DNA of 63,367 nucleotides, counting the filler, from Collodictyon triciliatum (taxonomy: Eukaryota): NCBI GenBank assembly GCA_043381765.1. It is 7 parts of 7 records of this genome, joined end to end, with 100 filler letters (N's around TTAATTAATTAA, not from the genome) between each part and the next. Parts side by side here need not be neighbours in the genome. Positions count along the whole stretch, not along the records: positions 46,160 to 56,162 come from JBHJMP010002827.1; 6 more parts are not named here. One strand, written 5' to 3'. The notes under the pieces are model-generated. The model had not been told where the DNA came from, made no database searches, and saw only the letters and a list, made by a program, of their open reading frames with translations. Positions within the stretch are counted from its first letter, which is position 1. Each line of letters begins with the position of its first letter. Positions 20,131 to 62,305 of this stretch are shown piece after piece. The position numbers and the translations under genes were made by a program.

Positions 20131-20230
20131 NNNNNNNNNNNNNNNNNNNNNNNNNNNNNNNNNNNNNNNNNNNNTTAATTAATTAANNNNNNNNNNNNNN
20201 NNNNNNNNNNNNNNNNNNNNNNNNNNNNNN

Positions 20231-36635: not shown

Positions 36636-36779
36636 TCGTGATTGTTTGTTTGTTGATTCAGAAATGGATATTGTTTTTTTTTTTTTTTTTTTAGAGATGT
36701 CTTTTGATATCTCGACATAACCCTGTCTTTTTTTCACTACTTCTTTTTTATCGATTCAAAGTGTAGCGAGGTTATGCCA

Positions 36780-40110: not shown

Positions 40111-40996
40111 TGTGGCCGGAGTGGAAGGCGAACTGTGCTTAGTTTGGTTGGGTGTAAGATGTCGTTTTGTGTGTATTCTACAGACAAGAAGCAATGGAGA
40201 GTAGTCGATAAAAGAAAAAATAGCATTTTTTTAAAAATATATATATAAAGGGTCGATCAAGTTGATTTTGCACACAGCGTCTTATTGCCAGGGAATCGTA
40301 GTTATCGAACTCGGTGGCTGTCAAACAAGAACATTGCAGAAGTATTTTTATTTTATGCATTTGTTCGAAGCCATCTGCGCTATATGCGCCACTATTTATT
40401 ATTTTTTATTTTTTTGCGAGGATGAGCCACTAAGAGAGCCTATGCAGATTATAGTCGATGCGTTCAAAAAGCCTCGTCCAGCGCCTCGCAGCCAATATCT
40501 GTTGCGGTGGACGCATCCCAACCCATGTTTATACTTTATATTGGCGTTATTGCCCTTCTTGAATACTTCTGAGCTGTCAAACAAGAGACTCTGGAAATAT
40601 GGGGTGAAAAAAAGACCTCTCATTTTTACAAACGACTCTATTGTTTAATAAACACCCGTACAAGCGTATGATTTAAACGACAAGATATTACCAAAATCAT
40701 GTGTTTTGCTCTGTTCTAGAAAGGATGAAAAGGCGGCACCCTTTTGTTCTATTTTGTTTGTTTGTTTGTTTGTTTGTTTGTTTGTTTGTTTGTTTGTTTG
40801 TTTGTTTGTTTGTTATTTTTTTTTAAAAAAAAAAAAGGAAATGAAAATATAAGGAAAAAGAAAAGGAAGAAAAGGAACTGCCGCCAGATATTTGTCGAAA
40901 TATTCACGTGTATCGCATGGTTTATTGGCTCCACTATGTGTGGATAGTATCTCTTTTTTTCTCTTTTTGAGACCGTGTTATAGATTGACAAAAGAA

Positions 40997-43900
40997 CTAT
41001 TGTAGCAAACATGTTTTGTTGCTGGTGACTTTCTCCTCTTTTCTCGTACTTGTTCTCACTCGTAAGGAAGATATCCTCCTTTCGTTTTCGGTTGTCTTCG
41101 CATCAGCAACACCAAAGTGCTCTTGGTAAACATTTCTCAGGCGCACATATATGGACAAAGCTTGTTGAAAGTTTCCTAGCTTTTGTTGGACAGCCGCTAT
41201 TTTTTCGTAAGATCTTGCAGTTGCGATGTTATTTTCTCCGAATATTTTTAAATGGATTTCCAGAGATTTGTTGTAATATTCTAAAGAGTCGCTGTATCTA
41301 ATTGATAGAAAAGTCAGCGAGGAGGAAAGGATAGGACGGTACGCACTACTAATTCTTGTCACGTTTTTAAGAATTCGCTACTGATAAAATAATCAAGAAA
41401 ACCTTTCTAGATTACTATAGACATTTCCAATATTCATAAATGACGCAGCGACGTCTGTGTGAGTATATCCAAGTAGTTTCTCTTTTATTTCAATCGACAA
41501 TTGAAAGAACTTAATCGCCTCTTCATACCTTATAAACATGATTTTTTTTATTTCAAGAGCAAATATGATTTAGAGGCAATTTTATTATCTGGTCAGTCGT
41601 ATATGAAAAGAAATAATTACCGTTCAATTCTATTGTAGACGGTCCCAAGATTATTGTATGAATATGCAACATCAAGGTGCGTATCACCGAATAATTTCAT
41701 GGTAATTTCAAGTGATTTATTGTGATTTTTTATCGCTTCTTCATATCTAATTTATGTATAAGTAGGTTAGGGAGAGCGTGAAAGAGGAATCGCTCATGGA
41801 ATTATTACAACCGCTTGAGATTCTTGTAAACGGCCCCAATGTTATTGTATGATGCTGAAACGCTCGAATGTAAATCCCCAAAAAGAGATATTTTAATGCG
41901 CAGAGATTTCTGGTGGTATATCAGCGCTTCTTCATACCTTTGTTCATTTGATTAAAAAAGTAGCAATCAGAATGTTTTCTGTTTTTTTTTAAAAAAAATT
42001 ACAGGAAAGTAGTATCAATTCGAAATACCTTTTTAGTTTTTCAAGGGCGGCTGCCAAATTATTGAGGGATTTTGCAACAAGAATATGCGCATCCCCAAAT
42101 ATCTTTTCCCGAATCTCCAAGGATTTTTGGCAATAAGATAGCGCCTCTTCATAACTTATCAAATAAAGTGTGCTCCGATGAGTCTTTTTTTTCCTCTATA
42201 GAAACGCATTTATAAATGACCTGAATTCAATAAAGTCATACTTATGAAGTCTGATGTAGATTGCACCCAGGGTATTCATATCATGACTCCTGGTTTCTAA
42301 TGTACATCAAGAATACTTAAAGTATTGAACATGTCATCTATTACAGAGCGAATATTTGGTATGATTAAACAAAATAATATTCGTGTATAAAGCCAAGACA
42401 AAAAAATAGGAACAGAATGTAGGAAGCAGTAATCATACCTTCGTTTGTATCAGATGCAATCTTTTGTAATATAACAGGCATTAAGAACTGGGATTCATTT
42501 GTAATTTGAAAATAATTGACCAAAGCTGTTCCAATTTCATTGGATTGCTAAATTGATTGAAAATAATGGTTTGTCAGTATTCATTCTAATAAAATAACTC
42601 TTTTTATTTAAAATATATGAATAAATAATATTGTGTAGAAAGTAATATCGATATATGTATTACCTTCACCATTTCCCCGTACACAATCTTATGGTCGTAA
42701 CCATGTTTGTTTAATTCTCGCCAACATTCATAAAATTCGAATTGGTACTCCCCATTCAACAAAGAAAGTACGACCTTTTCAGTAAATTTAATGGAAAAAA
42801 TGAAGGAAAATATAAAGGAAAATATCATGTGGATGGAAAATACAACGGGCTTACATTCTCGTGAGAAAGGTAATCAAGTAGCATTCCAAGCTCTTTTGAA
42901 GTTCTTAATGCATAACATATTTCTGCCATCATATTGCTTGGGGAACTAGAAGCTGCATATTCTTGTAAAAGCCACGTTGCATACTCTTTCGTTTCTTTTT
43001 GAAAACTCGTTTCACTTTCGAATCTGCTCTTCTTCGCAGATTGAACCAATAGCTGGTGCGAGAATGTATACCTGTTAAAAAGACATTATTTACATTTCTC
43101 AAATGTGAGACTTTTCGAGAGTCACATACTTTCCGTTTCTCACTACGAGGTAATCCAAAAGGACGAATATGAATGACTTCCTATACATGTAAGGGTCAGA
43201 TTTTTTTACATGCTATTATTTTGGAGGAAAACTTTGAAAAGATGAAAAATTGACATATACCATGAATGCCACTCTGAGACTGGATGTTTTGATTGGCTTA
43301 TCCCCACACGGTACTGCATATATTTGTCAAGTTCATTTTCATCAAGACCCGTCCTTGAAATGCAGAGTACGTCAATTGAAAGACGAACAATCGTGGGTCC
43401 TGGTCCAGCGGTTAAATTATCGATCGAAACTATTTCACTTCAAACTGTTAGACATATTCATGATGAATTCAAAGTTCAAACCGTATTTATACTCCCAACG
43501 ACTGATGACGAGGTTGAATAAATCGATAACACCCTTCGTTTTCAGCATAATTTGAAGTTCGTGGTCAATCTGTTCGTAAATTCCAAACGTTCGGAGTTCA
43601 TCCAGAATGATTTTCAGATATAAGGGGTGGCCTAGATGTTATCATAAGGCACATATTTTGGATTTTGTATGTTTTTTTGTATGTTTTTTTGTATGTTTTT
43701 TTTGTATGTTTTTTTGTATGTTTTTTTTGTATGTTTTTTTGTATGTTTTTTTTGTATGTTTTTTGTATGTTTTTTGTATGTTTTTTTTGTATGTTTTTTT
43801 TGTATGTTTTTTTTGTATGTTTTTTTTGTATGTTTTTTTGTATGTTTTTTTTGTATGTTTTTTTGTATGTTTTTTGTATGTTTTTTTGTATGTTTTTTTG

Positions 43901-45754
43901 TATGTTTTTTTTGTATGTTTTTTTTGTATGTTTTTTTGTATGTTTTTTTTGTATGTTTTTTCAAAGCACTACCAGTATCCTCTCTGTCATTCAAAATCAT
44001 TTCCATTTGCTTCTCATTTAAGCTTTTATCATATCGATGAAAGAACGATGTTGTAGATATTCTTATTCCTTCATCGTTAAGTTTAAATACTGGTATTATA
44101 TCGATTCCCTTAAGCTTGGCAAACTACAGATAAGACACATAAGTAACAGCAAAAGAAAAACATAGATAAAATAGGAAACGAGCTCTTACATCGCACGACT
44201 TGTGAGTGCTGATTGTAGATGCTATGATACAAAAATTCATTGGTGATTTTGCTGGGAGCCACTCAAGGCCATGAACGAAAGGATATTCTTGTGAATCGAC
44301 AAGTTGATTCAAGCCGTCGAGGACTATGACGACCTGCTTGTTTCTTGCATAATAGATTGGATGTAAATCTGATGATTAAATGAATTAATTTTATTCACAT
44401 ATTTAAAATTTTACAATCTTTTAGAAAATTGTGGTGGGTTTATGGTTCGTATCTACTTAAAGTTGCATGATTTTGTTGTTTGAGCAGGTCATTCTACCCT
44501 TTTGATTCTGCCAATCTTAAAACTGTCCCAAGTCCATCTTTCAAGCAATCTTTTCCTAAAAGATAATATCATTATTTAACCATCTATAGTATTTGAAAAG
44601 TTGACTGCATATTCATACCTTCATCAGAGTCTTGCTTGAATGACATCATCCCAATTTGATACAAAGTCTTCATAACTCGGTCAAGGAGACTAATTTATTG
44701 AGCGCAATTTAATTGCTTCATATTTAAGAATGTTCTGTTTTATGAAAAAATTGCAGAAAGAACATACTTTTCAACAAAACTACTCAAGTTTGAACATCCG
44801 ACGAAATGGTAGATGACAACCAAATTTTTGTCCTTTTCGCGTTGGAGCTGTGAAATAAGTCCACTCAATATCGTTGATTTTCCCATACCAGGTTCCGCTG
44901 CAATCATTGTAATATTTGAGGAATCCGTAGTGAGTTGTTCTTTTGTTTTTTCAATAAGAAACTGTATAGTAGCTTCACGTCCTTCAAACCCCAGCATTCG
45001 GTTGCGCATGAATTGTTCATGGGCGATACTCTCATCATCGACACACTAATCGATGGAATTTAGGTTTGTTGTTTCATCATCGTCAATAACGAACTCTAAA
45101 TAAAATATTCATACGTAATTAGTCGGGAAATCCTCATTTATAGAATGAGTCAAATCTTCAACAATTCGCTCCACCAATTCTTTTGGTGTTCTATAGATTA
45201 GAATTTCGAATTTAATCCGAATTCGTCGTTTCAACTCGTTCTGATTTTGTCTCTATATCAAAAGAAAAATGTTACCCAAAACGAAATTGAAATATGTTAA
45301 ATCGCTGGGGTGATTGTTAAGAAAATATAATGAACAATTGAATACACTAACATCCTTTTCGCTCGCAGGACGGTATAGCTCCCGCTCTGCTTCACTATCT
45401 GCGATGTGTTTTATTGCAAAGTCTTCATCTCTTTCGTAGAAGAAAGCACGTCGAGCAGCAGGTTTGTCTTGTAATGTACCATGTATAATCTGTAGCATTT
45501 TTGGGATAATTTATAGGTTGGGTTAAAAAAAACACAGAAAAAGGGAAGGAGACGATTTTGAATCAGAGATTTATTTAAACCTCATAGTCTGTAACACTGA
45601 GACCTCTAATCTTTGTGAGATAGGGAAAGAGCAAATCCGTCTCTGGGTGCCATTCAGATGGGTTCTCAAAATTAGGGGACCATCCATATCGCGAGCCAAG
45701 TGTGCATAGAAAGTATGGGCATTCTTCAATCGCCCTCAAACAACTTATAACCAC
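40997..45754 (-). CDS. DUF4062-NACHT-TPR STAND NTPase (NPHP3/TEP1/NWD-like), 5' truncated
   Basis: CLRAIEECPYFLCTLGSRYGW..LSVTDYE (DUF4062), Walker A AEPGMGKST, IYHFVG, Walker B VVIVLDGLNQL, WLP, LKIILDELR, GLDENEL, 42-aa kinesin-light-chain-type TPRs. Ends ...KTCLLQ at stop 40997. Confidence 0.92.
43665..43962. repeat. (GTATGT + T-run)n minisatellite in NACHT-gene intron
   Basis: Direct reading. Confidence 0.95.
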
Positions 45755-46159
45755 CTGTATTAATGTTTTACCTTCGTTTAAATAAAAAAAATAGAATCAT
45801 TTAATTGCGATATTTTGGTTTGTTTCACTAAAATAATCGATGATTCGTAACAATTTTCCTTTCACTCTTAATAAAGCAACATCGTTAAAGATTTCATTTA
45901 CCAAACTTATATACTGGCATCATACTTTCTTTTGTTTATTTTATTTTTTATTTATTTATTATGTATTATGTATTATGTATTATGTATTATGTATTATGTA
46001 TTATGTATTATGTATTATGTATTATGTATTATGTATTATGTATTATGTATTATGTATTANNNNNNNNNNNNNNNNNNNNNNNNNNNNNNNNNNNNNNNNN
46101 NNNTTAATTAATTAANNNNNNNNNNNNNNNNNNNNNNNNNNNNNNNNNNNNNNNNNNNN

Positions 46160-46256
<97 letters not shown>

Positions 46257-46477
46257 CATACAAAAATAGTGTAACATATCACAACGAATAAAAAATACTT
46301 CCATATATTAAGAAAACCGTTTTAATTAAGATTTTATTTCATTTTGTTTAATTTTTCCCCAAGAATATGAAATGAAAGTCGCACTTGAAATAGGATTCAG
46401 GTCGCTTAGCCAACCTTTGCATTTGTGGTGATTTGAAATTTGGTAGGGAGATTTTCAAAGTTAAAAATGCTTGAATA

Positions 46478-48296
46478 TTACACTTTGCTGGCTTTGATAT
46501 TTTCTTTAAGGATTACAAACAATTGAATATCAGATTCCGAAAGGTTGAAGGGGTGGTTCACCAACTCTTCGCATGTAAGCTGCAAAAACTCAGAACCTGA
46601 TATTCTTTCATCCATAATTGTAATCAAGAATGCTGGCGAAAGACTAAAGGCACCAAGGTATTGGACCAACTGTTGGGAATTCATGACGTGGACGAATGCA
46701 GGTGATTTATCCATTTGCCATACTAAAGGGCCATGATTTTTTCTGATATCATGAAGCTTTGCAAGAGTTTGTTTAATATTTGGGCGATGTGCAGGTTCAT
46801 ACGAGCAGCAATCTTTAATAAGTTGAGCAAGTTTCTTTGGACAAGATGCTTCGAGAGTAGGACAGCTACTTTTCAATTTTTCGATAATCAAATACCTTAA
46901 TTTCTTTCCGTCATATGGTTTTCTCCCATGAATCATACTCCAAATAACCAACCCAAGGGAATAAATATCACCGGAAGTGGTATATTCACGTAGGCAAAAT
47001 ATCTCCGGTGGGTAATATTCATAAGCGTCCCCGATGTGATTACCTCCTTGGGTCATTTTCCTTGCTTCATGGAATCCAAAGTCACTTATTTTTAAGACGC
47101 CATTAAATAGCAGAATGTTTTCTAATTTTAGTCTTCCGTGATAAAAAGGCGTCTGGTTGCAATGAAGGTAGGAAAGTCCATCACTGATCTGAATTGCATA
47201 TGCAATCGCGGTGTCAATAGATATCGCACCATTTGTTGTAATCAAGGACCACAAATTTCCTCCATCGCTGAATTCTGAAATGATAAAGATCGTATTGCCC
47301 TTGTGGCCTATTGTCATTATTTGACAAATGTTTTGATGTCTTAGCTTACTCAACGAGAAGGCATCGTTTGAACGGTAAAACTCGACTCTTTCTGATCGGG
47401 CGACTTCCTTTTTTAGAAGTTTAATTGAAACCCATTCGCCAGGTTTAATGGATGTCTTAAGAGTTCTACAAAATATAGTATCCCAAGAGACAGGCATGTT
47501 GCTCCAATCGGACATAATCAATTTCTTCAAGTCTGTATTTCCAACAAACTCTCTATTTCCTAAATATATATATATATATAGATGATTCACAAAATGGACA
47601 CTTAAACTGCATATACATATTGCAAGATAGTTGTATCATTTAAAAGCTAATTTACGAATTACGTCAAAGATTCATGGGACAGAGAGAAATTTTAAATTGA
47701 CATTTATTATTATTGATTACACTTGCCAGGGTGAAAAAAGTAAGAGGCACGAGAATCAGGTAGATTTAAGTATGAAGGCGATTGTTCGATACTGGATGGC
47801 TGGTCAGAAATACATGATTTCATTTCGGTATTCATATCGGAATTTTAACTTATGCGAATGTGAAAGTATAATTTTATGATATATGAAACATACATCGTCG
47901 TATAGAGTCAACTCTCGCAGGGTTTCAGCACAATTCCGATTCCAAATGGTTTGTATCTTTGTTTGATTACTCCAACAAGGAAGGCTAGTAATGCCGTGTG
48001 GGGCGCTCTTAACATATGTACTTCCACTGGGGTCATCCAGGATAAACATATTAAGCTCTCGTAAGAGGGTCACTTCCAGGGGAACTCGTTCGACCTATTG
48101 GAGATTGTTACTCGAATATAGAATTTAAATCGTTACTCTGTTTATTGTAAGGTGGTACAAAAATAATTCAGAAAGAGGATTGGTAAAAGGGAAGAGAAAG
48201 TAAGTATAACCAAAACAAAGCAAAACAAAACAAAGCAATCCCATACCATACAAAACCATACCATACAAAAGCAAACCAAACCAAACCACACCAAAC

Positions 48297-48368
<72 letters not shown>

Positions 48369-49284
48369 AAAAAAAAGAATAAAAAAAAAAAAAAGAAATA
48401 AAACAGAATGGAAATTAACATATCAATTAAAATGTACTTTGTTGCCATAAATGACAAAACAGGTTAGACCCGACAAGAGAGATATCCATGAAGGGATACT
48501 TGTCAAAAGATTCTTGTGAATATCAAAGAGAACTAGATTATGTAGCCGTGATATCCCTGAAGGTAAAATCGTAAGCGTGTTTCCGTTAACTTGCAGGGTT
48601 TTAAGTTTTGTCAAACAGCTAATTCCCTCGGGCAAGTAAGCCAGTCGATTGTTGCCCGCGTTGAGATAAGTCAAAACGCTCAAACAGGATATTCCATCAG
48701 GTAACTGTGTCAAACTGTTTTTTATTGAGACATAGGAATGTCAGCTGACTTAAAATTGATATAGTGTCCGGCAAGGATGTGACCTTGTTATCTGAAACGG
48801 CGAGTATATTCATGCTTGATAAACAGGATACCTCTGGAGATATAGACGACAATCCATTTCCAAGCATGATTCCTTTTAGGTTTGTTAATTGCCATATCTC
48901 TGAGGGGATATGTGATACTTTATTTTTCAGACCAAATACAAAGTTCAGCTGTGGCAATTGAGAAATAGTGCTGGGAAGGATCGAGATATGGTTCGAGTTG
49001 AAATTAATTATGGAAAGGTTGCTCATAGAAAAGAGCTCAGGCGGCAGTTCTGTTAGTTCGTTATCCTGGACTGAAATGCAGGTGAGTCTGGTGAGCCTGG
49101 AGATCCAACCGGGTATACAATTGATTCGATTGCCTTGCAAAAATACTACCTCAAGGGCATTAAAAGACCCCAGGTTTTCAGGAAGGGCAGTTAGTTCTCT
49201 GCACTCGAGGTCTAAGCGTGTGCAAACACTCAAGGGCTGCTCGGCTGGTGTCCAAACTGGAGCGCAGTCTTCGACACAAGTCAT
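46478..49284 (-). CDS. LRR - TKL-type pseudokinase - SAM protein; apparent 1-nt frameshift at 48718-48723
   Basis: About 13 LRRs from ATG 49284; kinase fold VSIK, LRHQNI, HGRLKLENILL, KISDFG, YYPPE, DIYSLG; SAM-like tail QQLVQYL..IMDERISGSEFLQLTCEEL. Confidence 0.88.
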
Positions 49285-49396
49285 CTTTCTAACCAAGGCA
49301 ACGAAATAAAATGAAAAACAAAACAAAACAAAAGATAAATGCGATATATTTACATATATCACGACAATAAGCGCATGCACAAATATACTCTAGGCA

Positions 49397-49885
49397 GAAG
49401 AGAAAGAGAGAGAGAAAAAGGGAAAAAGGGAAAAAGGGAAAAAGGGAAAAAGAGAAAGAGAAAGAGAAAGAGAAAGAGAAAGAAAGAAAGAGAAAGAGGA
49501 AAGAGAAAGAGAAAGAGAAAGAGGAAAGAGAAAGAGAAAGAGAAAGAGAAAGAGAAAGAGAAAGAGGAAAGAGAAAGAGAAAGAGAAAGAGGAAAGAGAA
49601 AGAGGAAAGAGAAAGAGAAAGAGAAAGAGAAAGAGAAAGAGAAAGAGGAAAGAGAAAGAGGAAAGAGAAAGAGGAAAGAGAAAGAGAAAGAGGAAAGAGA
49701 AAAAGAAAGAGAAAAAGAAAAAGAAAGAGAAAGAGAAAGAGAAAGAGAAAGAGGAAAGAGAAAGAGGAAAGAGAAAGAGAAAGAGGAAAGAGAAAGAGGA
49801 AAGAGAAAGAGAAAGAGAAAGAGAAAGAGGAAAGAGAAAGAGAAAGAGAAAGAGAAAGAGAAAGAGAAAGAGAAAGAGGAAAAGG
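49397..49885. repeat. Polypurine (GAAAGAGAAAAGAG-like) repeat
   Basis: Direct reading. Confidence 0.95.
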
Positions 49886-50190
49886 ATGTGGTGGGGATGA
49901 GCAAGCTATCACAAGTGCTGCTAGAGATAAAATTATTATTGTTTTCCTTTTTTTTTTATGAGTTGCCCAAGGAAGGCGCCGCAGTCTATTGGGCTTCTGG
50001 TAGCGGCTCTGATTATGATTCCGTGAGCCCCTGCAAAGATTCCTGGAATCAACCCAGTTGTGGAAGATAGCATTAAGGGAGGGAAGTACGCAAATCACTC
50101 TCGAACGACTCTGGATGAATGACAAGATTGTCCAGAGAAAAAAAAAAGAAAAAAAAGTTGTGGTGTAGGCGAAGCGGTGTAGAAAACCTG

Positions 50191-53100
50191 CTAATCCTTT
50201 GACTCGAATACAAAGGAACGAGAGAAAATATTCTCGTGAAAGGTATCCTTCACATCCCCCAACATCTCGCTTAGCCTCCAAAATGCAACGCGAATCACGG
50301 CTGGGCCAGCCACAGATAGATACAACGTCGCAAAGAGTGCATTCAGAAATATAACGAGAACAGCTAAAACACTCTCGCTCATACTGTCCAAATTATCATA
50401 GCGGAATAGTAATCCCATCATCAGAGTAAAGTAAAGAACGCCCATAGAAAACAGCTGAGACTTTCTCAAAACGTTTGACATGAAGGGTTGAAAGTAAAAA
50501 TTAGCCCCAGAAGACATGATTAAAAGCCAGATTCCAAAATAAATTTGCATCGAAGAAGAAAAAAAGACACTAATAAAAACAACCAATAGTTTTTGGACCA
50601 TGGAAACCACCTCCCAGTAGAAGCATTCGTCTTTGTAACCATCCACCAAAAATCGGAACAAAGAGTATGTATGCGATGCCGGGTTACTCAGAGAAGTTCG
50701 CTTCTGGAACATACGGACTAACAGGAAAATTGGCCCACATATGCAATAGACTATTACATACACAAGCGCAATATTTTTCCAGTAATCATACTTCGGGTCG
50801 TCACAGTCTATGGACATATCCATTTTCAAAAATCTCTTATCTCCGAGCGTTTCGCATGGAAATATGCTTGCCACACTCGCGGTTATTGTAGGGTGCAAAA
50901 AGAAAAGGACAACCAACGCTGAATATTGAAATTCGTGACGAAGCTGAGCGTATGTTGTCGGTTTTACATCTGGGTCAGCTTTAAATCGGTTCCAGCCAGA
51001 TTTCACAAACAAAAGAACAACAACCACCCCCATTAGTAAGGCAGGGCTAAGCATGGTGAACAATAACTTTTCATAGGTACTCAGCTGGTACTGGCAGTCA
51101 ACGGGGTATGTATCGATCGAGATGGAAAATGAAAATAGAGCGGGAAGCTTCATGGCCGATAGAATCGACTGGTTCCAGTTGACATCGAAATTGGCCAAGT
51201 ATGACAGGATTTGGAAGTGACTGGTGAGAGTTTTCAGGATTTGAATATTGGCAGTTTTGGGCTGCCTTGACTGCTCTATCATATACACCACGAACCCCAA
51301 AGGAAGAACAATACTGAGAAAGACAAGAAATCCATTAAAACCTTTAGATACACACTTCACACAGAACGAACCTGTAGCTCCATAGCCGCTATCACAGGCA
51401 CTACACAAGGCTCCATCATAACCTTTCGTGCAATCATTGCTTCCTCCTTTACATGCATCGATGTTGGGACATTTATAAGCAATATATTCATGTTTAGAAC
51501 TTTGAGCACGCCAATAACCAGGTGCCACATGTAAGGTGTTACTTCCGTCACATATAAAACCTTCAGGACACTTCGTGCACATCTTATATTTTTCACTCAA
51601 GTACTGGCCATTCAAATTACAAACACACGAATTGTAACTCGTGGACCCAACAGAGCTTGTGGTAGAAGCTGGAGGACAATCTCGGCAAGCAGTTTGCCCA
51701 TGCTCGTAGTTGTAAGAATTCAACGGACATGCCATACATTTGCCGTTTGTCTCATAAGTGCCTGGTTTACAGAGGCAAACGCCGTCTATTTCAGAGTATT
51801 CGTCTTTACATATACAATTGCTAATGTTGCTCGCACCAGTAAAGTTGGTGGTAAATTTGTCTGGACATGGGGAGCACGCAATAATATCATATGAACTCTT
51901 GAAAAAACCAATATCACATTTATCACAAGTCGCGTGATTCTCAAATGAACCTGGGCCGCATGTGCAGATATCGCCACTTTGATCATACGTATTTAAGCAT
52001 CTACAATCATTGATGTTTTTTGACCCTTTGTAATCTGTAGTAGAACGACTTGGGCAATTTGTACACAGGACGCTTCTCTCGGAACTGAATGTGCCCGTAG
52101 GGCATTGAATGCATGATGATATATTCAGAGAACCAGTTTTGTTATTAAACGTACCTGAAGGGCAGGGTTCACAAAATGCTTGGCCTTCAAAATTATTGTA
52201 TGTGCCCTTGGGACAGGCAATGCACGCCGTAATCAAATATGAACCAGAATTGGGATTGAAAGTACCTCTTGGACATTTTTGGCAATGAATACAGCTAGCA
52301 TTAGAACATTGGGCCCCATATGTCCCAGGTAAACACGGAGTACAAAACGAGCTAGCTTCTGGGCTAAATTGACCACCAGAACAGCTCAGGCAGGATGAAG
52401 ACCCATACAATCCAGTCACGTTGTTATAAGTCCCGGATGGACAATTTGTGCATGATATCCCACTATCATCCCCAAAAGTGCCTTTGGGACATGACAGACA
52501 AGAGCTGACGTCAGTTTCTCCAAAATTTGGATTGTAAGTTCCCAAAGGACAAGATTCACAGTTTTTCTGGCCTTTTTTCGAATTAAAAGTACCCGGGAGA
52601 CACATTTCACACGCCATCTTACCTTGGTCGTCAGCAAATGTCCCCTCGGGACATAACTCACACATTTCAATGCTAGTAGACCCTATGTTTGGGTTGAATG
52701 TACCAACAGGACACACATTGCAGGAGATGGAACCTGTTTCATTATTGAAAGAGCCTAGCTCGCAAGGTGAGCAAATAGACTCTCCAAAATCGTTTGTGTA
52801 GAAGCCAGTAGGACAAGGAATGCACCTGGTCTGTCGATCGATCCCATTAAATGTACCGGGTGGGCACTTCTCACATTGCTTTTGGCCACTTTCTGAAGTG
52901 AATGTACCCGGGTTACATGGAATGCAATCATTCACGCTAGTGGAACCGTACTTTGTGCTGAAGGTCCCTGGTGGGCATTCCAAACACTCAAAGTAAGCGA
53001 CAGGGTGGTAATAAGTTCCTGGATTACAAATTGTACAATGCCCCAAAGTCTGGTCGAACATATAGCCCGCATTACATATGCCCCAAGACTTGACTGTAGA

Positions 53101-55776
53101 ATCAACACTTACGGAGATAAGCAATGTGTTATTTTTTGTTACTGCAACGCTTTTGATAGTATTGGTATGCCCACTAAATGAATGAGCTAAATCACAGTCA
53201 GGAAGTGCCCATATTTTAATGGTCCAGTCTCCGCCCCCAGATACTAATCTACCACTTGATGACAATACAACCATGGATGTAGTCCCTGTGAAACTGGTAA
53301 TTTTGTTTATTTCGTGGCCGTCTGTTATGTCGAACATAGATATACCGCCTTCCACTCCAACTATGATATGTAAATCATCAGGGCTAATCACTATGTCGGA
53401 AATTCGTTCTGAATTTAGAATATAAAGAAATGGGATTTCCTCTTTGAAATTCCATACTCTTATGACGCCATCTGAATCACCCGATACTATTTTTTTGCTA
53501 TCACTGGTTAAGGCCAGACCACCGAATCCATTATCATAGCCAATAAGAGTCCGAATGAGAAATCTAGAGGACATGTCCCATATTTTAATGGTGGTATCTT
53601 CACTTGCAGATAAAAAAACAGATTCATCAGAAGCCACTAATATTTTTTTTATAGGGAGCCTATGATGAACAACATTTAAAATGGATACTTTGGTCTCTAT
53701 ATCCCAAACTCTGATTCCATAATATGCGTGACCATAGGCTACCTTAGTCCCATCACCACTCGATGCTAGACACTGTATCTCGATTTCTCCTCGAAAGGAA
53801 TGCACAAATAAACTGTCGCTAAGATTCCAAACCTTAACAGTTCTGTCTGAGCTTCCAGATATTATATATTTACCATCTGAAGTTATCAAAACACTCTGAA
53901 TTGAGCCTACATGGCCGGCTATGGTAGATACAACCATCCTGCTTGCCAATGACCATACTCTGACGAGTTTGTCCGAGCTTCCAGAGACAAATTTAGAGCC
54001 GTCAGGTGATATGGTAAGACTGTAGATAACATCAACTGATAAGGGAATTGCATCTAGTAGAAGCTCTGATGATAAATCCCACATATTTATTGATTGGTCA
54101 GTTCCAGCAGAAAGTAGCACGGAACCATCGGGTGTGACCGCGATGGTCATCACAGGGCCATAATGCCCGACTAGAGTGCCCATCAAGTCACCTGATTCTA
54201 TATCCCAAATGTTAATGGTCTGGTCTTCGCTACACGATACTACCTTTAAATCATCAGGGGTTACGAGTACAGCCATAACACTGGCAGTATGACCATGCAG
54301 GGTGCGAATTAGAGACCAGCTAAACCGATTCCAAATTTTTATGGTCATGTCCATACTCCCTGATACGATTTTTGACATTTCTTTGTTCATGACAACAGAC
54401 ATTATGGCCATAGAATGTCCTTGGAGGCGCTTAATGGTTGTTCCTAAAAAGTAGTCCCAAATAATAATGGAGCTATCCCAGTATCCACATATGATTATAG
54501 AGTCATCCGGTGCAATAAAAATTGCTTGCAGAAGTATGGAGGGCACTAAAACTTGGTGCGTGAGAGTTAAGGTATCAGCTTCCCTTATGGAAATATCCAT
54601 ATCATTTCCGGCACTTAAAATATGCCCTTCAGTTGGGGTGATGGCAATTGTATTTATATCTTCGATATGGGCACTTATTTGGCTTATTAGAGTCCCGTTG
54701 TTTGCGTCGATTTTTAGGATACTTCCATCCTTGCCACCAACATATAGAATTGATCTTTTATGTGAAATTCCTATGGTATAGTATTCTGTGCAGCCATAGA
54801 TTACTTTCAGAAGGGTTCCATTCGACAGCGACCAACTCTTTATAATATTATCCATTCCTACAGAAATAATGACGGAGTCGCTGTGAGCCAGAGCAATATT
54901 TTCTACTCCAACTGTACCGCAGACAATATTCTGCAAAAGAACTCCGCTTTCTGTTGACCAAATTTTTATTGTATTATCTCTGCTTGTAGAAATGACTTTT
55001 GAATCGTCTTGTGTCACGAGAATACATATTATCTCTCCATAATGACCCCCTAGCGCCATTATGAATGAGGCAGTCTCTAAGTCGTACATGAATAAGTCAC
55101 CAAAGGTACCGCAAGAAACAAAGAGAGATGACCCATCATGAGTAGTTGCCAGATACCTGACGAATTCACAGACATCTAAGGATCCAATTAGACTCCCATC
55201 ATCAAAATTCCAGATTTCAATGGAGGGCTCATATGAATATGCGCTGTCTGCAGAGCCCAGGAGAAGAATTGGTTGGTCAGGAATAATGACCGCACCTCCT
55301 AATGCGGTTATGCTCCCAAATATAGGAGATAGTAATGAACCGTCTCGGACATCCCAAATATTTACCATTCCCCATTGTTCACAGGAAATTATCCTATAGC
55401 CATCCCCAGCAACTAGGAGATGAGACACACTAGAAAAATGATCAACTAATGTGTGAATTATCGAATAATCTAGTAGACTCCAAACTACGATGCTTCCATC
55501 TTCATAGCCTGATGCAAACCATAAGTCATCCAGGGCAATAGCGATGGATGCCGGCTTTCCATTGCTTGAATCAATACTCTTAAGTAACATCCCGTCTTCC
55601 AAACCCCAAATCTTGATCACTTCGTCATAACCTACGGTTATGAACTTTTGGTTGTCATGAGTGACGACTATGTGTGAGATTCCTTTAGAATGCCCCTCAT
55701 TCTTGTAGCTGAATAGGTAGTCACTTCCGTATCCCGCGTTGAATGTAAATGAGATGATGAGGCCTATGTTATACAT
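50191..55776 (-). CDS. Intronless 1861-aa receptor-like protein: ~20 WD40 repeats, Cys-rich ephrin-receptor-like/TNFR-like repeats, ~9-TM domain
   Basis: GH...SGSxDxTIKIW repeats; CxxCPxGTF repeats; CKGG..CTKGYDGALCSACDSGY; TM domain with HFQIL, LHPTIT, LKMDMSIDC and FLVDGYKDECFYWEVV. Confidence 0.93.
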   Translation of the reverse strand: MYNIGLIISFTFNAGYGSDYLFSYKNEGHSKGISHIVVTHDNQKFITVGYDEVIKIWGLEDGMLLKSIDSSNGKPASIAIALDDLWFASGYEDGSIVVWSLLDYSIIHTLVDHFSSVSHLLVAGDGYRIISCEQWGMVNIWDVRDGSLLSPIFGSITALGGAVIIPDQPILLLGSADSAYSYEPSIEIWNFDDGSLIGSLDVCEFVRYLATTHDGSSLFVSCGTFGDLFMYDLETASFIMALGGHYGEIICILVTQDDSKVISTSRDNTIKIWSTESGVLLQNIVCGTVGVENIALAHSDSVIISVGMDNIIKSWSLSNGTLLKVIYGCTEYYTIGISHKRSILYVGGKDGSILKIDANNGTLISQISAHIEDINTIAITPTEGHILSAGNDMDISIREADTLTLTHQVLVPSILLQAIFIAPDDSIIICGYWDSSIIIWDYFLGTTIKRLQGHSMAIMSVVMNKEMSKIVSGSMDMTIKIWNRFSWSLIRTLHGHTASVMAVLVTPDDLKVVSCSEDQTINIWDIESGDLMGTLVGHYGPVMTIAVTPDGSVLLSAGTDQSINMWDLSSELLLDAIPLSVDVIYSLTISPDGSKFVSGSSDKLVRVWSLASRMVVSTIAGHVGSIQSVLITSDGKYIISGSSDRTVKVWNLSDSLFVHSFRGEIEIQCLASSGDGTKVAYGHAYYGIRVWDIETKVSILNVVHHRLPIKKILVASDESVFLSASEDTTIKIWDMSSRFLIRTLIGYDNGFGGLALTSDSKKIVSGDSDGVIRVWNFKEEIPFLYILNSERISDIVISPDDLHIIVGVEGGISMFDITDGHEINKITSFTGTTSMVVLSSSGRLVSGGGDWTIKIWALPDCDLAHSFSGHTNTIKSVAVTKNNTLLISVSVDSTVKSWGICNAGYMFDQTLGHCTICNPGTYYHPVAYFECLECPPGTFSTKYGSTSVNDCIPCNPGTFTSESGQKQCEKCPPGTFNGIDRQTRCIPCPTGFYTNDFGESICSPCELGSFNNETGSISCNVCPVGTFNPNIGSTSIEMCELCPEGTFADDQGKMACEMCLPGTFNSKKGQKNCESCPLGTYNPNFGETDVSSCLSCPKGTFGDDSGISCTNCPSGTYNNVTGLYGSSSCLSCSGGQFSPEASSFCTPCLPGTYGAQCSNASCIHCQKCPRGTFNPNSGSYLITACIACPKGTYNNFEGQAFCEPCPSGTFNNKTGSLNISSCIQCPTGTFSSERSVLCTNCPSRSTTDYKGSKNINDCRCLNTYDQSGDICTCGPGSFENHATCDKCDIGFFKSSYDIIACSPCPDKFTTNFTGASNISNCICKDEYSEIDGVCLCKPGTYETNGKCMACPLNSYNYEHGQTACRDCPPASTTSSVGSTSYNSCVCNLNGQYLSEKYKMCTKCPEGFICDGSNTLHVAPGYWRAQSSKHEYIAYKCPNIDACKGGSNDCTKGYDGALCSACDSGYGATGSFCVKCVSKGFNGFLVFLSIVLPLGFVVYMIEQSRQPKTANIQILKTLTSHFQILSYLANFDVNWNQSILSAMKLPALFSFSISIDTYPVDCQYQLSTYEKLLFTMLSPALLMGVVVVLLFVKSGWNRFKADPDVKPTTYAQLRHEFQYSALVVLFFLHPTITASVASIFPCETLGDKRFLKMDMSIDCDDPKYDYWKNIALVYVIVYCICGPIFLLVRMFQKRTSLSNPASHTYSLFRFLVDGYKDECFYWEVVSMVQKLLVVFISVFFSSSMQIYFGIWLLIMSSGANFYFQPFMSNVLRKSQLFSMGVLYFTLMMGLLFRYDNLDSMSESVLAVLVIFLNALFATLYLSVAGPAVIRVAFWRLSEMLGDVKDTFHENIFSRSFVFESKD

Positions 55777-56360
55777 TAGAGCTGCGTATTAACTAAAATA
55801 ATAGGGGTCTTACATCAGGCACGGTCAAGTAATAAGTACCCGATAATAGTAATGCTAGATAAATAAACTATTTTTTCTATTCCAGTAGTGCTTACATATC
55901 AATTCAACTTTAAAGAACATTGCTTTCGGCTATCCGCAGGACAAACCTGTTGCGACGATGTCTAAATTTGAATATGAAGTGCTAGGATTAGGAATATGAT
56001 TTAGCTATTCCACTATTCTTCTGATATGCAAACTGAAGAGGGTCATTTTCACCACAAGAGAAGGAAAGAAAGAAGGAAAGAAGGAAAGAAGGAAAGAAGG
56101 AAAGAAGGAAAGAAGGAAAGAAGGAAAGAAGGAAAGAAGGAAAGAAGGAAAGAAGGAAAGAANNNNNNNNNNNNNNNNNNNNNNNNNNNNNNNNNNNNNN
56201 NNNNNNTTAATTAATTAANNNNNNNNNNNNNNNNNNNNNNNNNNNNNNNNNNNNNNNNNNNNATAAAAAATAAAAAATAAAAAATAAAAAATAAAAAATA
56301 AAAAATAAAAAATAAAAAATAAAAAATAAAAAATAAAAAATAAAAAAAAAAAAAAAAAAA

Positions 56361-56421
<61 letters not shown>

Positions 56422-56467: not shown

Positions 56468-59400
56468 ATGGGCTATTGCGCTATTGTATCACTAAATCTG
56501 GGTGACAATTACCTCTCTGGACAATTTGAGTCCATAGAGCCTTATTTATGGCAGTTTCCCTTTCTGATGTATTTAATTCTTAGTGATAATCAATTGCATG
56601 GTACAATTGGATCATTTAATCAAATGTACCTTCAGATGATTGCACTAAATGGAAATCGTTTGTCTGGAACCTTGCCCAATATGATACTGCCCAGTTTGAA
56701 GACGTTTGCTATTCATGAGAACATGTTTACTGGGCCACTTCCTGAATTTTCATCATCACCGCAAGTGAATACAATTAGCGCTTACAGCAATATCTTCCAT
56801 GGTCAAATACCAGAATACAACTTGCCTAGATTAAGTGTCCTTGCTTTGCATGACAACCGCCTGAGTGGGACCCTTCCCACATTTCAGAATAGTCCGTACT
56901 TAGTCATCTTTAGCACTCAAGAGAATATGATACATGGAATCGTACCAAATTACTCTCTTCCTTTTCTAAATACTCTGTCAATCTTTCAGAATGAAATTTA
57001 TGGTGATATTCCAAAGCTAGTATGTCCTTCTCTGGTTAATCTTGCCATGCACAATAATAAGATGTATGGCACAATCCCGTCTTTTTCTTTTAATCCGAAT
57101 TTAGATGTAGTGTCATTATCGGGCAATCAGTTGACTGGAACAATCCCATCTTATTACCTCCCTAAATTGACGACCTTGTCATTGGGTGGTAATCGATTTT
57201 TTGGTTCCATTCCAGCAGCCGAACAACACCCGATGATAAAGGTTTTATCACTGACGAGCAATCAATTTCATGGAACTTTGCCAAATCTTGCAGACTCCCC
57301 TCTTATCACTGTCGTTGATGTTTCAAAAAATAATATATCAGGTACATTAGAAAAACAACTAGGGGGTGTGAACTTACATGCCTTTGTAGCAACATCGAAT
57401 CCACTGGAAGGAATGATACCCAACTTTATCGGAACGCCATACCTATCCATTCTTTTGCTCGAAAACAACCACATAAACGGGACGATACCAAGATTTACTA
57501 ATCTATCATTTCTTTCTCTCTTTATTACTGGTGGCAACAAGATTGAAGGGACTATACACTCGTTTTCAGAAAATCAATATCTTCAGACTTTGGGAATGTA
57601 TCAGGCAAATTTAACAGGAACATTACCAGCTTTTAATTCATCGGCCCTATTAGAAGTTTTGATTATTTATGAGACTCGTATCAGCGGTTGGCTACCTAAA
57701 TTTGAGTTGCCATCGCTGGAGAATATATACATTTTGCGAAATGATATGATCGGAACCATTCCAACATTCAAGCAATCGAAGAGAATTAAGGAAATATACC
57801 TTGTCTACTGCAACTTTAATGGTACCTTACCTGATTTTTTTAACATGCCTTCCTTGATTTCCTTGTTCATCACCCATACAAACATTTCGGGTACAATACC
57901 TAATTTTCGCAGTGTTCCAAACCTTCGTGAGCTAGTATTATCGGCTAGTCAATTTTCGGGCACAATCCCAAACTTTTCTCATCTGCCTTACTTGAGAACT
58001 TTAAAGATTTATCAAGCGATGATTTCGGGAACTATCCCAGATTTTGAATTAATCCCGGAACTTATGGTTTTGAGCCTCTACGAAACAAGAATTAATGGCA
58101 CCATTCCAGATTTTAAAAATTTACCGAAGCTGGCAACTCTCCAGATTCACCAGACCGACTTGACAGGACCACTCCCAGCTTTCAAAAACTGCATCAATCT
58201 TAGCTACGTCACTGCTTTTAAGAACAAATTGAATGAATCGATTCCCAATTGGACGCTTCCGAGCTTATATTATTTGGATGTCGGCCATAATATGCTGACT
58301 GGTATGGTCCCGTCATTTTTGGGAATTCCTAAGCTACAGAGCTTTATTATTCACCACAACCATATAGCTGGAGTCATACCTCAATCTGCATCAAATCTAT
58401 ACTATTTGCAAGAATTTATTGCTGGCCACAATAGTCTTAAGGGCTCCTTGCCGACGAAATTCCTGAATCTCCCTAATTTGCTTACCTTGGACTTGAGTCA
58501 TAACGATTTTGATAGCGTGATAAACTATTTCTTGGTTCCTGATTCGGATGCTGCGACATCTATATATTCCATATATTCCCTTAATTTTGAAAACAATAGG
58601 CTATCAGGGCCAATATCTTATTATATTCCTAGTGTGTTGATGAAAGCCAGGGAAGTTAATTTTGCAAATAACATGATAACCTCTTTGGATGACTTACCCT
58701 TTTTCGCCAGTTGGGAACGATTCAATTTATCTGGCAACCCCTTGACTGGTACCATTCCTGAAACGTATGCATCGTTGTCGAGTTTAGGTGTTCTTGATGT
58801 TACAAACACGCAGCTAAAATCTAATCGAAAGGAACAACCATTACCAAAATTTTTGTCCGTCTCGCTAGTGTTTGAAAGGAACGATGAGCTTCAGAACTAT
58901 TATTGCCCAAAGATTATTGGCATGCAGAACCCCAGCCTGAACGTATATATGGAATCGACTTATTATAATAATACGTTGTGCCAATGTCTTCCAAACTATT
59001 TTGGATCAGGGAACCGTTGCATTATTTGTGAATCTCCTTGCCAATGTTCTGGTGGTACGCACCTTAAATATTGCTATGACTCTACAAATGAAGGAATTCC
59101 TGTTGGGCTATACACATGCCCGTACAAATCTGCGTGTAACCCTGATGACAAGGAAAACTTTGAATGCAAGGCAGGTTATTCTGTAAGTGAACAAATCAAT
59201 ATGATTTTTTTAATACATTATCTGGTTTTAAGAAATAATTATGATTCTTGTTCGTCTCACGTTATGCATCTTTGATTTAATTTCTGGTTTAAATTAGGGC
59301 CGACTTTGTTCCCAGTGTGTATCAGGATACCAACAACAAGGAAGAAAGTGTGCAGAGTGTCCATATTATGCAACAGCTGTTGTTTTGACCCTTTTTCCTA

Positions 59401-61326
59401 TGGCTCTTATATTATTGATGTGGTATTTAATAACCACTCCACCAAAAAATACAGGTGATTTCACCCTCCCGTTAGCCAGAGAAAAGAAGCTGAATTTTTT
59501 TAAAAAATATGCATTCGTACATCTACTAATTTATTTTACATAAAACATAGGTGTCATCAAGATATTCCTTTTTCATTTGCAAACTCTTTCAATTTTGTCA
59601 TCAACTATTCTTGATCTGGGTACTGAAATGAATTCATTCGTCGATACAGCTTTTTTGTCAGCCAGTTTTATGCTCCCTGCATTGGTATATTATCAAAGGA
59701 ATGCAATCACCTCAACATTATTATATTATTTTTTATTGTTCCAAAGTTTTCTATGAAAGTAAAAAAAAAACTTCGTAATTCAGAACTGCATAGTGGGGGA
59801 TGTAACGACTAGAACAACAATACTCATCTACCTTCTTCGGTTTCCTGTTATATTGGTCTTGGGGGCAGTCATTTGGATAATTGTACCAGACAGAAATAAA
59901 AACAAGGTAACCTAGCTATCCAGCTGATATCTCAACAAGACAAGGTTTTTAAGAACGCTGAATTCCCTTCCTTGCCTTGTTTCCCTTTTATTCCCCCATG
60001 TCCCTTTTCTTTCCATTCTTCGCATCAGAGAAAATTGTCAAGTGAAATTAATCCTTTTTTTTATGTATTTATATGACCCATTTTACAATAGGTCATTTTC
60101 ATAATGTCCTTTTGCATCTACGCAATTTACTATGGAGTTAGCAGAGTTACCTTCAGTTCGATAGGTTGTACATTATACGACCAAGGAAATAAACACTGGT
60201 ATTTGAATATGTTTCCATGGATACGATGTAGACCATCGACAGGTGAGTTTGATGACATCGCTGCGATTGCATCCCTGTTTCTAATTTTTGTCGTCCTGGG
60301 CCTTCCTATATGGACATATTTTCATCTTGAGCGTCTATCTAAAAAATTCAATGAGGCGAACGTGGAGGATTGTTATGGTTTTCTCTACCTCCCCTACCGC
60401 AAGGTAAGACTTCGGGCTTAAGCTTTTCTATCTCGTTACTGGGGAGGATATTGTAAAAGGAAACACTCCAGGAATGCAATCTACCCAATTTTATTACCAC
60501 TGCTATTATATAAGTGTCTTAAAAAATATGTTTTGGTGACTAACCGGTCGGATAAATGAAATAGGAATGTTACAACTGGGAATGTGTTGTATTGCTGAGG
60601 AGATTGTTTTTCAGTATGGTGATTACCGTTGTTCCATATTCCCAGCCAACGCTGTTGTTCTTTTTGCTCTACATAATAATACAGGTTTTTTTTTACCATT
60701 GAGATTACTTTTTTTTTTTATCACCCCTCATTACAATAATGACCTTTAAATTTTTTAATCTTACTCTTGAATTTCTTGATGCTGCAAACATTACTCTTTT
60801 TTTCTGGAAAAAAAATATTAGCATACCCAGATTTCATACAAGTATTGAAGAGGAAATATACCCTTAACGTGTATCATACATGAAGCTTTATCTGATAAAC
60901 CCGTCCTCTTAGATATCGATATGGCTCCAACAAACCTACAAACCTTATGCCCTGGAGCGGGAGAATCGCCTTGAGATTGCAAGTCTATATGTGATTTACT
61001 TCTCCTTCTTTGCAGGGCTGTTATCGACGCTGTTGGATATCAGCCAGTGGTTAATCCTGCTTGTCTTGGTTTTTAACATCGTGGTTGCATCGTTTATAAG
61101 CATCGTGTTCATCATCGTCCCGGGAGCAAGAAGCTTCTGGGCCTCTCTCTCCAAGAATGTATCTCCAGTCCACAACTTCAACTCTATCCAAATGGAAGTG
61201 TTCTCAGGCGCTTCGAATTCTAAAGCCTCGTGGAGCAGTCCCCAAGAGGGTATCGAAGCGGGGAGTACGGTATGCACCCAAGAAGTACCTTCAAAGCCCC
61301 AATCAAAAGAGGGCCCCAGCAGCTGA
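56468..61326 (+). CDS. LRR-ectodomain receptor-like protein with Cys-rich stalk and ~9-TM domain; at least 7 exons, 5' end missing
   Basis: About 30 plant-RLK-type LRRs (LxxNxLxGTIP). Exons approximately 56468-59182, 59299-59454, 59551-59684, 59784-59906, 60092-60403, 60565-60683, 60913-61326. Motifs CKAGYS|GRLCSQCVSGY, FHLQTL, YLNMFPWIRC, YGFLYLPYRK|ECYNWECV, YKPY. Confidence 0.9.
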
Positions 61327-61496
61327 ATCTGCAATAGTCCACCCAGGTCATTCATAGGAGTATCACAAGCTTTCGTGCATACTCTCTGAGAGGAGTCACT
61401 NNNNNNNNNNNNNNNNNNNNNNNNNNNNNNNNNNNNNNNNNNNNNNNNNNNNNNNNNNNNNNNNNNNNNNNNNNNNNNNNNNNNNNNNNNNNNNNN

Positions 61497-61998: not shown

Positions 61999-62305
61999 GT
62001 AAGTCTATTGTTCAGGAGGTAAAATTTAACATCAGAGTCATGTAGATTAGATAAATATCATACTATCAGTGTTCCAATAGTTGTTTGTGTTTTGTGAATT
62101 TTCTTTTTCTTTTTCTTTTTCTTTTTCTTTTTCTTTTTCTTTTTCTTTTTCTTTTTCTTTTTCTTTTTCTTTTTCTTTTTCTTTTTCTTTTTCTTTTTCT
62201 TCCTTNNNNNNNNNNNNNNNNNNNNNNNNNNNNNNNNNNNNNNNNNNNNTTAATTAATTAANNNNNNNNNNNNNNNNNNNNNNNNNNNNNNNNNNNNNNN
62301 NNNNN

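Follow-up and report, generated by a model that had tools for sequence, protein, structure and literature searches.

In a stretch of 63,367 nucleotides from the genome of the eukaryote Collodictyon triciliatum (GenBank assembly GCA_043381765.1; hereafter the window, i.e. the whole stretch of DNA that was analysed), a single-exon gene located at positions 50191..55776 on the minus strand encodes a large surface-receptor-like protein, which comprises, from the N-terminus to the C-terminus, a short leader, an array of 21 canonical WD40 blades, a cysteine-rich stalk, a small juxtamembrane cysteine knot and a C-terminal membrane module. The gene is intact, and judging from sequence comparison, its stalk and membrane module (together the chassis) belong to a very large, mostly protist family, whose members combine these constant parts with a variable outer cassette. 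Our preferred explanation, to which we give a probability of about 0.6 as a whole, is that the protein is a modular surface receptor, in which the constant stalk and a nine-helix module carry three WD40 propellers as the variable distal cassette.

Domain organization of the predicted protein

The open reading frame (ORF) of this protein (P0001) runs from a single ATG to the stop codon at 50191-50193 and encodes 1861 amino acids (aa); the frame from stop to stop covers 50191..55788. A stop-free frame of 5583 nt in DNA with a G+C content of ~41% cannot be due to chance. Residues 18-899 (53080..55725, minus strand) are occupied by canonical WD40 blades, which were delineated using the Pfam family PF00400, an iterated repeat hidden Markov model (HMM) and an AlphaFold2 (AF2) model. 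PF00400 matches this region with an E-value of 2.5e-73 (239.9 bits, compared with a cut-off of 27), and many WD40-propeller families score even higher, e.g. THOC3 with 6e-150. The iterated repeat HMM resolves the region into 21 head-to-tail units of ~42 aa, 19 of which are strong and two weak. The AF2 model of residues 1-930, built on an alignment of 24 rows (A2), is all-beta, with 82 strands at residues 33-899, or ~4 per unit; its mean predicted local distance difference test score (pLDDT) of 71.3 and predicted template-modelling score (pTM) of 0.42 support the blades, and not their arrangement into propellers. The 21 blades would fit three seven-bladed propellers, and it is from this count that we infer both the closure of the rings and the number of propellers. 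The blades share a mean pairwise identity of 25% (maximum 47.5%), and at the DNA level, repeats of 33-36 nt between them have 61-75% identity. In a word-index search, the best WD40 relatives had identities of 22-31%, and none exceeded 31%. There are ten cysteines in the WD40 region, at positions 132, 203, 222, 251, 286, 329, 430, 515, 669 and 861, which show no periodicity, and four sequons, at N319, N360, N651 and N882.

Directly after the last blade, without any linker, starts the cysteine-rich stalk of Ephrin_rec_like (GCC2/GCC3-type) repeats (residues 900-1434; 51475..53079, minus strand), as identified with Pfam. Ephrin_rec_like (PF07699) matches in 12 stretches with an E-value of 4e-86, and further matches are to TNFR_ELAPOR1_6th (3.4e-23), NCD3G (3.7e-19) and TNFR_c6 (7e-7). 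Residues 901-1480 contain 69 cysteines (11.9%), compared with 10 in residues 1-900, as well as seven N-x-S/T sequons. The stalk is followed by the juxtamembrane cysteine knot DUF7630 (PF24633; residues 1435-1475; 51352..51474, minus strand), which matches with an E-value of 1.2e-6 (29 bits, compared with a cut-off of 27) and sits just before the first hydrophobic helix. The same knot occurs in relatives of the membrane module, i.e. in 10 of the 28 sequences aligned in A1 and in two of 12 long relatives (both sets are described below); our literature search returned no paper on DUF7630. A lead from the ESM Atlas, a cluster with Ephrin_rec_like, NCD3G and DUF8003 (0.82), was below the level that this resource treats as evidence and was set aside.

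The membrane module (residues 1476-1861; 50194..51351, minus strand) was defined by hydropathy and by an AF2 model, for which we used alignment A1, consisting of 27 short relatives and thus 28 members in all. Strong hydrophobic segments span residues 1482-1832, and the model has a mean pLDDT of 86.5 and a pTM of 0.84. We read its helices as nine membrane spans in an N-out, C-in orientation, the number of spans being a reading of the predicted model. Two invariant cysteines (positions 216 and 233 of the fragment) fall in one loop, A1 contains further conserved motifs, and the nine-span, N-out model places this loop outside the cell and 13 lysines and arginines in the inner loops compared with six in the outer ones. 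No other Pfam family matches residues 1476-1861, and a search of the Protein Data Bank (PDB) by sequence profile gave marginal matches to the cysteine part only, the best having an E-value of 0.019. One member of A1 matches the Pfam family JAMP (PF05571) with an E-value of 1e-6; the module or the juxtamembrane cysteine knot may be related to it.

This organization agrees in outline with an earlier note on this DNA, which had described an intron-free ORF of 5.6 kb at the same place, about 20 canonical WD40 repeats (we count 21), disulfide-type cysteine repeats between these and the first transmembrane (TM) helix (the 12 PF07699 stretches with their 69 cysteines), and a leader of only weak hydrophobicity, whose sequence and hydropathy are given below. 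The same note had spoken of a chassis with nine TM helices, a fair description that rests on prediction, with the AF2 scores just cited.

A large family with exchangeable outer domains

To the last 436 residues of the protein (1426-1861), used as a phmmer query against 1.84 billion cluster representatives, 6874 relatives were found at E<=1e-3, a number that falls to 1782 at E<=1e-10 and to 57 at E<=1e-30. What is matched is nearly always the C-terminus of a long protein, and the match typically covers query positions ~5-400; the best match in the membrane-module search is 48% identical. The best full-length relatives are transcripts of Rigifila ramosa, with 30-35% identity, and one from Clastostelium recurvatum, while more distant ones come from the brown algae Ectocarpus fasciculatus and Sphacelaria rigidula. 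Twelve long relatives were compared with Pfam, and their domains were found to vary, including TIG domains in nine, RCC1 propellers in four, FG-GAP in two, PQQ-type propellers in two and leucine-rich repeats (LRR) in one; Ephrin_rec_like was detected in four and DUF7630 in two, and one relative had no match at all. Members still more distant carry ANF_receptor, PMP repeats or EF-hands. Because the outer domains of the relatives differ in this way (TIG, RCC1, FG-GAP, PQQ, LRR), the family behaves as a constant module joined to a variable cassette. A word-index search for longer proteins with the A1 profile added four matches with uninformative names.

The architecture is less singular than the earlier note had supposed, since the chassis family is huge and its members routinely have propellers of an 'intracellular type' such as RCC1 in their outer part (four of the 12 long relatives). 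The WD40 head itself is rare. Among 125 proteins compared, 90 share only the WD40 part with our protein, 26 only the stalk, four only the module and four the stalk and the module, and a single one, P0066, shares all three. P0066 is an ENA record of 2506 aa with a clear signal-peptide-like start, behind which it has, in the order of our protein, canonical WD40s (residues ~141-884; PF00400 with an E-value of 9.9e-72), Ephrin_rec_like repeats and the membrane module. It differs from our protein in that the overall identity is only 23%, and in that its WD40s are bordered on both sides by Ala/Gly-rich repeats, which by eye resemble beta-helix (PMP-type) repeats. The WD40s of our protein match those of P0066 with an E-value of 6e-25, compared with values of up to 4e-204 (for the whole protein) against bacterial and fungal STAND-type WD40 proteins. 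Since bacterial and fungal WD40s resemble ours far more closely than those of P0066 do, the recruitment of the two heads probably took place separately. Another protein, P0126 (EukProt, 2375 aa), has WD40-propeller families together with the ion transport protein family PF00520 in its precomputed Pfam list, so that here, too, WD40s share one chain with a domain of a membrane channel. Among the papers listed by our literature searches, none reports canonical WD40s mounted on the chassis, which is no proof that no such report has been published.

A paralogue of the chassis is present in the window on the next piece of sequence (56468..61323, plus strand), where an LRR head is followed by DUF7630 and the membrane module. 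It was located by a search of all 1891 ORF pieces of the window with the A1 profile. The LRR head is a single ORF of 2.8 kb (LRR_4, E 6e-38), and the module is matched by the profile in seven colinear pieces (profile positions 8-79, 80-126, 139-177, 180-217, 242-333, 334-373 and 371-454), with E-values from 2e-8 to 0.26, three of them at 1e-8 or better, which implies at least six introns. When residues 1401-1861 of our protein were compared with the window by tblastn, only a 21-residue piece of the paralogue was recovered. The ORF of the paralogue starts ~200 nt from the start of its contig, so that its 5' end is probably cut as well.

Location of the WD40 array

The best reading of the available evidence is that the WD40 array lies outside the cytoplasm, and we regard this as probable. 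The WD40s and the stalk are encoded by one uninterrupted ORF, no hydrophobic segment is present at residues 421-1475, and the AF2 model shows three mild hydrophobic peaks of the WD40 region as beta strands. Lacking a signal itself, the stalk could enter the lumen of the endoplasmic reticulum (ER) only behind an N-terminal signal, and therefore the WD40s would be carried along with it. Obvious signal peptides are found at the N-termini of the complete chassis relatives P0128, P0131, P0145, P0146, P0147 and P0159, and P0066, an independent protein, has its canonical WD40s on the same chassis behind a clear start of this kind. In our protein, hydropathy and the translation of the ORF point to the leader following the start codon, residues 1-17 (MYNIGLIISFTFNAGYG; 55726..55776, minus strand), as a candidate short signal peptide. 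Its best hydropathy over nine residues is 2.33, at position 4, a value reached by 35 of 97 chassis relatives (counting those that begin with M and have >400 residues N-terminal to the module; many of them are truncated predictions) compared with 8 of 75 WD40-only control proteins drawn from the matches of the whole-protein word-index search. The leader stops exactly at the first blade, the first repeat unit beginning at residue 18, and residues 1-27 have a pLDDT of <50 in the AF2 model.

A number of observations, on the other hand, weigh against this explanation. The leader is short and uncharged, and its hydropathy is matched by the eight cytosolic-type WD40 proteins among the 75 controls. 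The blades show none of the adaptations expected outside the cell, with 10 scattered cysteines and four sequons in 900 residues, while the propeller of CRINKLY4 (see below) is described as having one disulfide per blade, unlike the aperiodic WD40 cysteines here. The contig breaks 386 nt upstream of the ATG, which leaves room for another 5' end. None of the 150 best of the 6874 chassis relatives has a WD40 region detectable with the array of our protein, so that the arrangement is exceptional within the family. As regards the module, Foldseek gave no match at E<=1e-3 among those listed, with TM-scores <=0.23, and residues 1426-1861 do not match the Pfam family TRP (PF06011) even at E<=1.

The first alternative to be weighed is that the 5' end of the gene is incomplete, i.e. 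that one or more upstream exons, located past the contig break or within the 386 nt, provide the real signal peptide and perhaps more outer domains. The present ATG would then be internal and the gene not strictly intronless, though an extracellular position of the WD40s would be unaffected. The weakness of the leader as a signal peptide would be explained in this way, and the contig does finish at an artificial linker. Moreover, the upstream flank holds a speculative 5' feature (55782..55920, minus strand), made up of an ATG at 55920, a GTAAGC donor 25 nt later and a CAG acceptor ending at 55782. This donor/acceptor pair is in phase and has a spacing like that of the introns of the paralogue, and its splicing would keep the main frame and extend the leader by 10 codons. 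However, a better-looking TAG acceptor lies a few bases upstream of the CAG, and use of this site would introduce an in-frame stop, so that at most a non-coding 5' intron is favoured; the splice signals mark a candidate mini-exon or 5' intron at this place. An in-frame stop is also found four codons upstream of the ATG of the ORF, and all three other ATGs of the upstream flank terminate within <=21 codons if unspliced. Furthermore, since the repeats number exactly 21 (3 x 7) and the first unit adjoins the 17-residue leader, no blade seems to be missing. Taken together, we consider an incomplete 5' end rather unlikely.

In a second alternative, residues 1-1477, including the WD40s, would be cytosolic, with the first hydrophobic helix serving as a reverse signal anchor and metal bound by the cysteine repeats in place of disulfides, so that the protein would be a cytosolic WD40 scaffold anchored in the membrane. 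Canonical WD40s are almost always cytosolic or nuclear, and blades without disulfides and with few sequons behind a short, uncharged leader are what such a protein would have. The rest of the chain argues otherwise. The Ephrin_rec_like, TNFR-like and NCD3G families are extracellular disulfide modules according to their family descriptions, and the complete relatives of the same chassis start with signal peptides. A basic RQPK motif just past the first helix and the bias of lysine and arginine fit an N-out orientation, and only in the N-out model does the loop with the invariant cysteines lie outside. The cysteine repeat modular proteins (CRMPs) of Toxoplasma gondii (TgCRMPs), whose general design resembles that of our protein, have also been reported to be N-out in the sections of the study that bear on topology (PMC9670195), an analogy that may point the same way. 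A cytosolic array therefore appears very unlikely to us.

A third alternative, which we also consider very unlikely, is that the fusion is not a real gene product: it could have arisen in the assembly as a chimera between a receptor gene and a gene for a cytosolic WD40 protein, or the gene could have died recently or never have been expressed. The assembly is fragmentary, with 10-kb pieces, microsatellites and gaps, and the exact protein is absent from a collection of 15 billion proteins. On the other hand, a stop-free frame of this length is unexpected for a chimera or a decayed gene, the last blade passes into the first cysteine repeat without any break or change of composition (G+C content at third codon positions, GC3, of 0.369 and 0.381), and P0066, from an independent source, contains the same three modules.

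Proposed mechanism and comparison with known systems

If the protein is a modular surface receptor as proposed, the short leader, or a leader extended by a small upstream exon, would bring the chain into the ER, so that the WD40 array and the disulfide-bonded stalk would come to face the exterior, leaving the C-terminal tail on the cytosolic side. There the propellers, as an extended platform, could bind a macromolecular ligand or the surface of another cell, and such binding, or a mechanical force acting on the long stalk, would be relayed to the membrane module. By analogy, the module might signal as a Ca2+-permeable, stretch-sensitive pore similar to Pkd2 (PF06011), or else as a non-channel sensor in the manner of the apicomplexan and ciliate CRMPs that trigger exocytosis. 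The ORF, the domains with their order, the family, its variable heads and a second member with WD40s are established, while the topology, the binding of a ligand and the mode of signalling are inferred. The proposal in the earlier note that WD propellers are used here as an extracellular ligand-binding domain is accordingly upheld for the extracytoplasmic placement, at the strength given above, whereas its ligand-binding part stays conditional.

Both the type of chassis and the combination of a propeller with cysteine-rich outer parts are already known in outline, the former from the CRMPs and Pfam TRP and the latter from CRINKLY4. The CRMPs of Apicomplexa and ciliates are described, in the portions of two studies that deal with their architecture, as having cysteine-rich outer domains and nine TM helices, arranged so that the N-terminus faces outwards and the C-terminus is cytosolic, and they have been proposed to be contact sensors for exocytosis; one of the studies notes that the predicted 9-TM core recurs in Dictyostelium proteins, which have other outer parts (PMC9815656, PMC9670195). 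Similar to these proteins, ours has a large modular outer part with GCC2/GCC3-type repeats and about nine C-terminal helices, where the span count is a reading of the model. The outer modules of the CRMPs, however, are Kringle, MAR or GAIN-like domains and not WD40s, the likeness is one of general design, and the nearest named relatives of our protein are Rigifila and Clastostelium and not alveolates.

A possible link to PF06011 comes from relatives of the module. Of the 28 sequences in A1, eight have matches to this family at E<=0.01, which cover the C-terminal two thirds of its profile (positions ~156-416 of 426), and two of the eight, P0210 with 53.3 bits and P0223 with 32.4 bits, are above the curated cut-off of 28.5. 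Fission-yeast Pkd2 and budding-yeast Flc are proteins that we take to be members of this family. The relevant part of one study describes fission-yeast Pkd2 as having a predicted extracellular N-terminal domain and a cytosolic tail, and as being permeable to Ca2+ upon membrane stretch (PMC9727806). These fungal proteins differ in having a small N-terminal domain in comparison with the 1470-residue outer part of our protein, in which channel activity would be a matter of analogy. A more specific version, in which our protein would represent a new class of receptor-channel, where a triple head of ordinary, disulfide-free WD40 propellers on a rigid cysteine stalk senses a ligand or force outside the cell and gates a nine-helix, Ca2+-permeable module related to Pkd2/Flc, such heads having been recruited independently at least twice (in our protein and in P0066) and the introns having been lost via an RNA intermediate, seems improbable to us as a whole.

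In the plant receptor kinase CRINKLY4, the ectodomain is reported to begin with a propeller of seven blades, which the authors name WD40, and to continue with a cysteine-rich domain of the TNFR type; the propeller is functionally essential and the putative ligand-binding part (bioRxiv 10.1101/2020.08.10.245050). CRINKLY4 has one propeller with a pore-filling N-terminal strand, a single membrane helix and a kinase, whereas our protein has three propellers of the cytosolic type, according to the reading above, nine helices and no kinase match. A WD40-like domain facing the lumen has also been described, in the sections of a study concerned with domain structure, for the Giardia membrane protein GlVps, which has no predicted cleavable signal peptide (PMC3423367). 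As described there, GlVps has only one WD40-like match, which is weak (superfamily E 2.7e-10), spans the membrane once and acts as a sorting receptor, and it lacks both the cysteine stalk and the multi-span module of our protein.

WD40 ranks among the most common intracellular scaffolds in eukaryotes; if the proposed topology is true, a disulfide-free canonical WD40 array outside the cell would widen the range of this fold and offer a simple test case for the secretion of propellers. The gene also points to a large and barely described receptor chassis, distributed across several eukaryotic supergroups, with freely swapped heads; by analogy, this chassis may correspond, in free-living organisms, to the CRMP sensors through which invasion is triggered in apicomplexans, and it may also have remote ties to fungal Pkd2/Flc. 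If the signalling of one member were understood, this would be informative for all the others. On the other hand, what we describe is one unusual cassette in a cassette-exchanging family rather than a new kind of system, and its topology is our interpretation.

Absence of introns and age of the WD40 cassette

The absence of introns from the receptor gene is real. The homologous module is free of introns in this gene and is interrupted by the introns mentioned above in the paralogue, where these are ~90-220 nt long, with GTAAGT or GTGATT donors and mostly TAG acceptors; the paralogue, however, is distant and not the parent of the gene. Moreover, because its 2.8-kb head is also a single exon, long intron-free exons are normal in these genes. 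No direct repeats of >=12 nt that could represent a target-site duplication were found flanking the ORF, the upstream flank being only 386 nt long, and the search for a poly(A) remnant revealed only an A10 tract ~235 nt past the stop codon, followed by a long CT-rich microsatellite, in a genome rich in homopolymers. A reverse transcriptase fragment (RVT_1, 33605-34021, plus strand, E 2e-13) is the only signal of its kind among the ORFs scanned; because it is located on another piece, it makes reverse transcriptase activity in the genome plausible and no more. The idea of retroposition put forward in the earlier note thus has in its favour that the gene lacks introns which a homologous gene has and that such a fragment is present in the window, and against it that the poly(A) and target-site hallmarks are missing. 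Likewise, the statement that the neighbouring genes are mostly rich in introns is borne out by the paralogue with its seven pieces and by the LRR and kinase pieces lying in separate frames (see below), but most of these 'neighbours' are unproven as such.

Recent capture of the WD40 domain, which the earlier note had offered as another explanation, is not supported, because the blades are divergent (mean identity 25%), the GC3 is host-like and only distant WD40 relatives (<=31% identical) are found. The GC3 of the WD40 part, 0.369, is close to that of the stalk (0.381), of the kinase (0.36) and of the LRR gene (0.379). Correlations of relative synonymous codon usage (RSCU) between the modules are noisy, from -0.03 to 0.67, and uninformative. 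By all indications of the sequence comparisons, the WD40 cassette is old and not a recent acquisition.

Gene locus and other features of the window

The window is composed of seven pieces of 10017, 10013, 15724, 10005, 10003, 5943 and 1062 nt, joined by six identical artificial linkers (N44-TTAATTAATTAA-N44) at 10018-10117, 20131-20230, 35955-36054, 46060-46159, 56163-56262 and 62206-62305, and adjacency across these linkers is meaningless. Ordinary gaps are also present at 23314-23681 and 61401-61496. The receptor gene lies on the piece 46160..56162, which ends on the upstream side in a TTCC microsatellite and is closed by the linker 56163..56262. Because the pieces are joined by linkers, most 'neighbours' of the gene are unproven as neighbours; this holds for the LRR gene at 56468 and for everything below 46160. 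Downstream of the receptor gene, its contig carries on the same strand a kinase ORF (46478-47635; Pkinase, E 1e-37) and LRR pieces that fall into two frames (48697-49389 and 48423-48740); together these probably form one LRR-kinase gene split by introns. Microsatellites and homopolymers, including poly-T and poly-A runs, occur at 48170-48400, 49339-50070, 56060-56162 and 56280-56420. A CT/GA-rich array of ~550 nt is situated just downstream of the receptor gene, and the 243-aa ORF on the plus strand at 49339-50070 is a translated GA repeat only.

On the other contigs, a G+C-rich island is found at 23903-26667 (minus strand), with a G+C content of 0.54 in 24001-26000 compared with ~0.37 elsewhere, and its two long ORFs (461 and 383 aa) have no Pfam match at E<=1e-4. 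No Rfam match was found over the whole window. The contig 36055-46059 contains ORF pieces with LRR (E 3e-12) and tetratricopeptide repeats (TPR; E 3e-11) at 39643-41377 (minus strand), beside which the A1 profile gives non-significant matches at 40652-40944 (E 0.15-0.7). Finally, two ORF pieces on the first contig (8384-9890, minus strand) match P-type (E1-E2) ATPases with E-values of 1e-10 and 2e-13 and represent exons of a cation pump.

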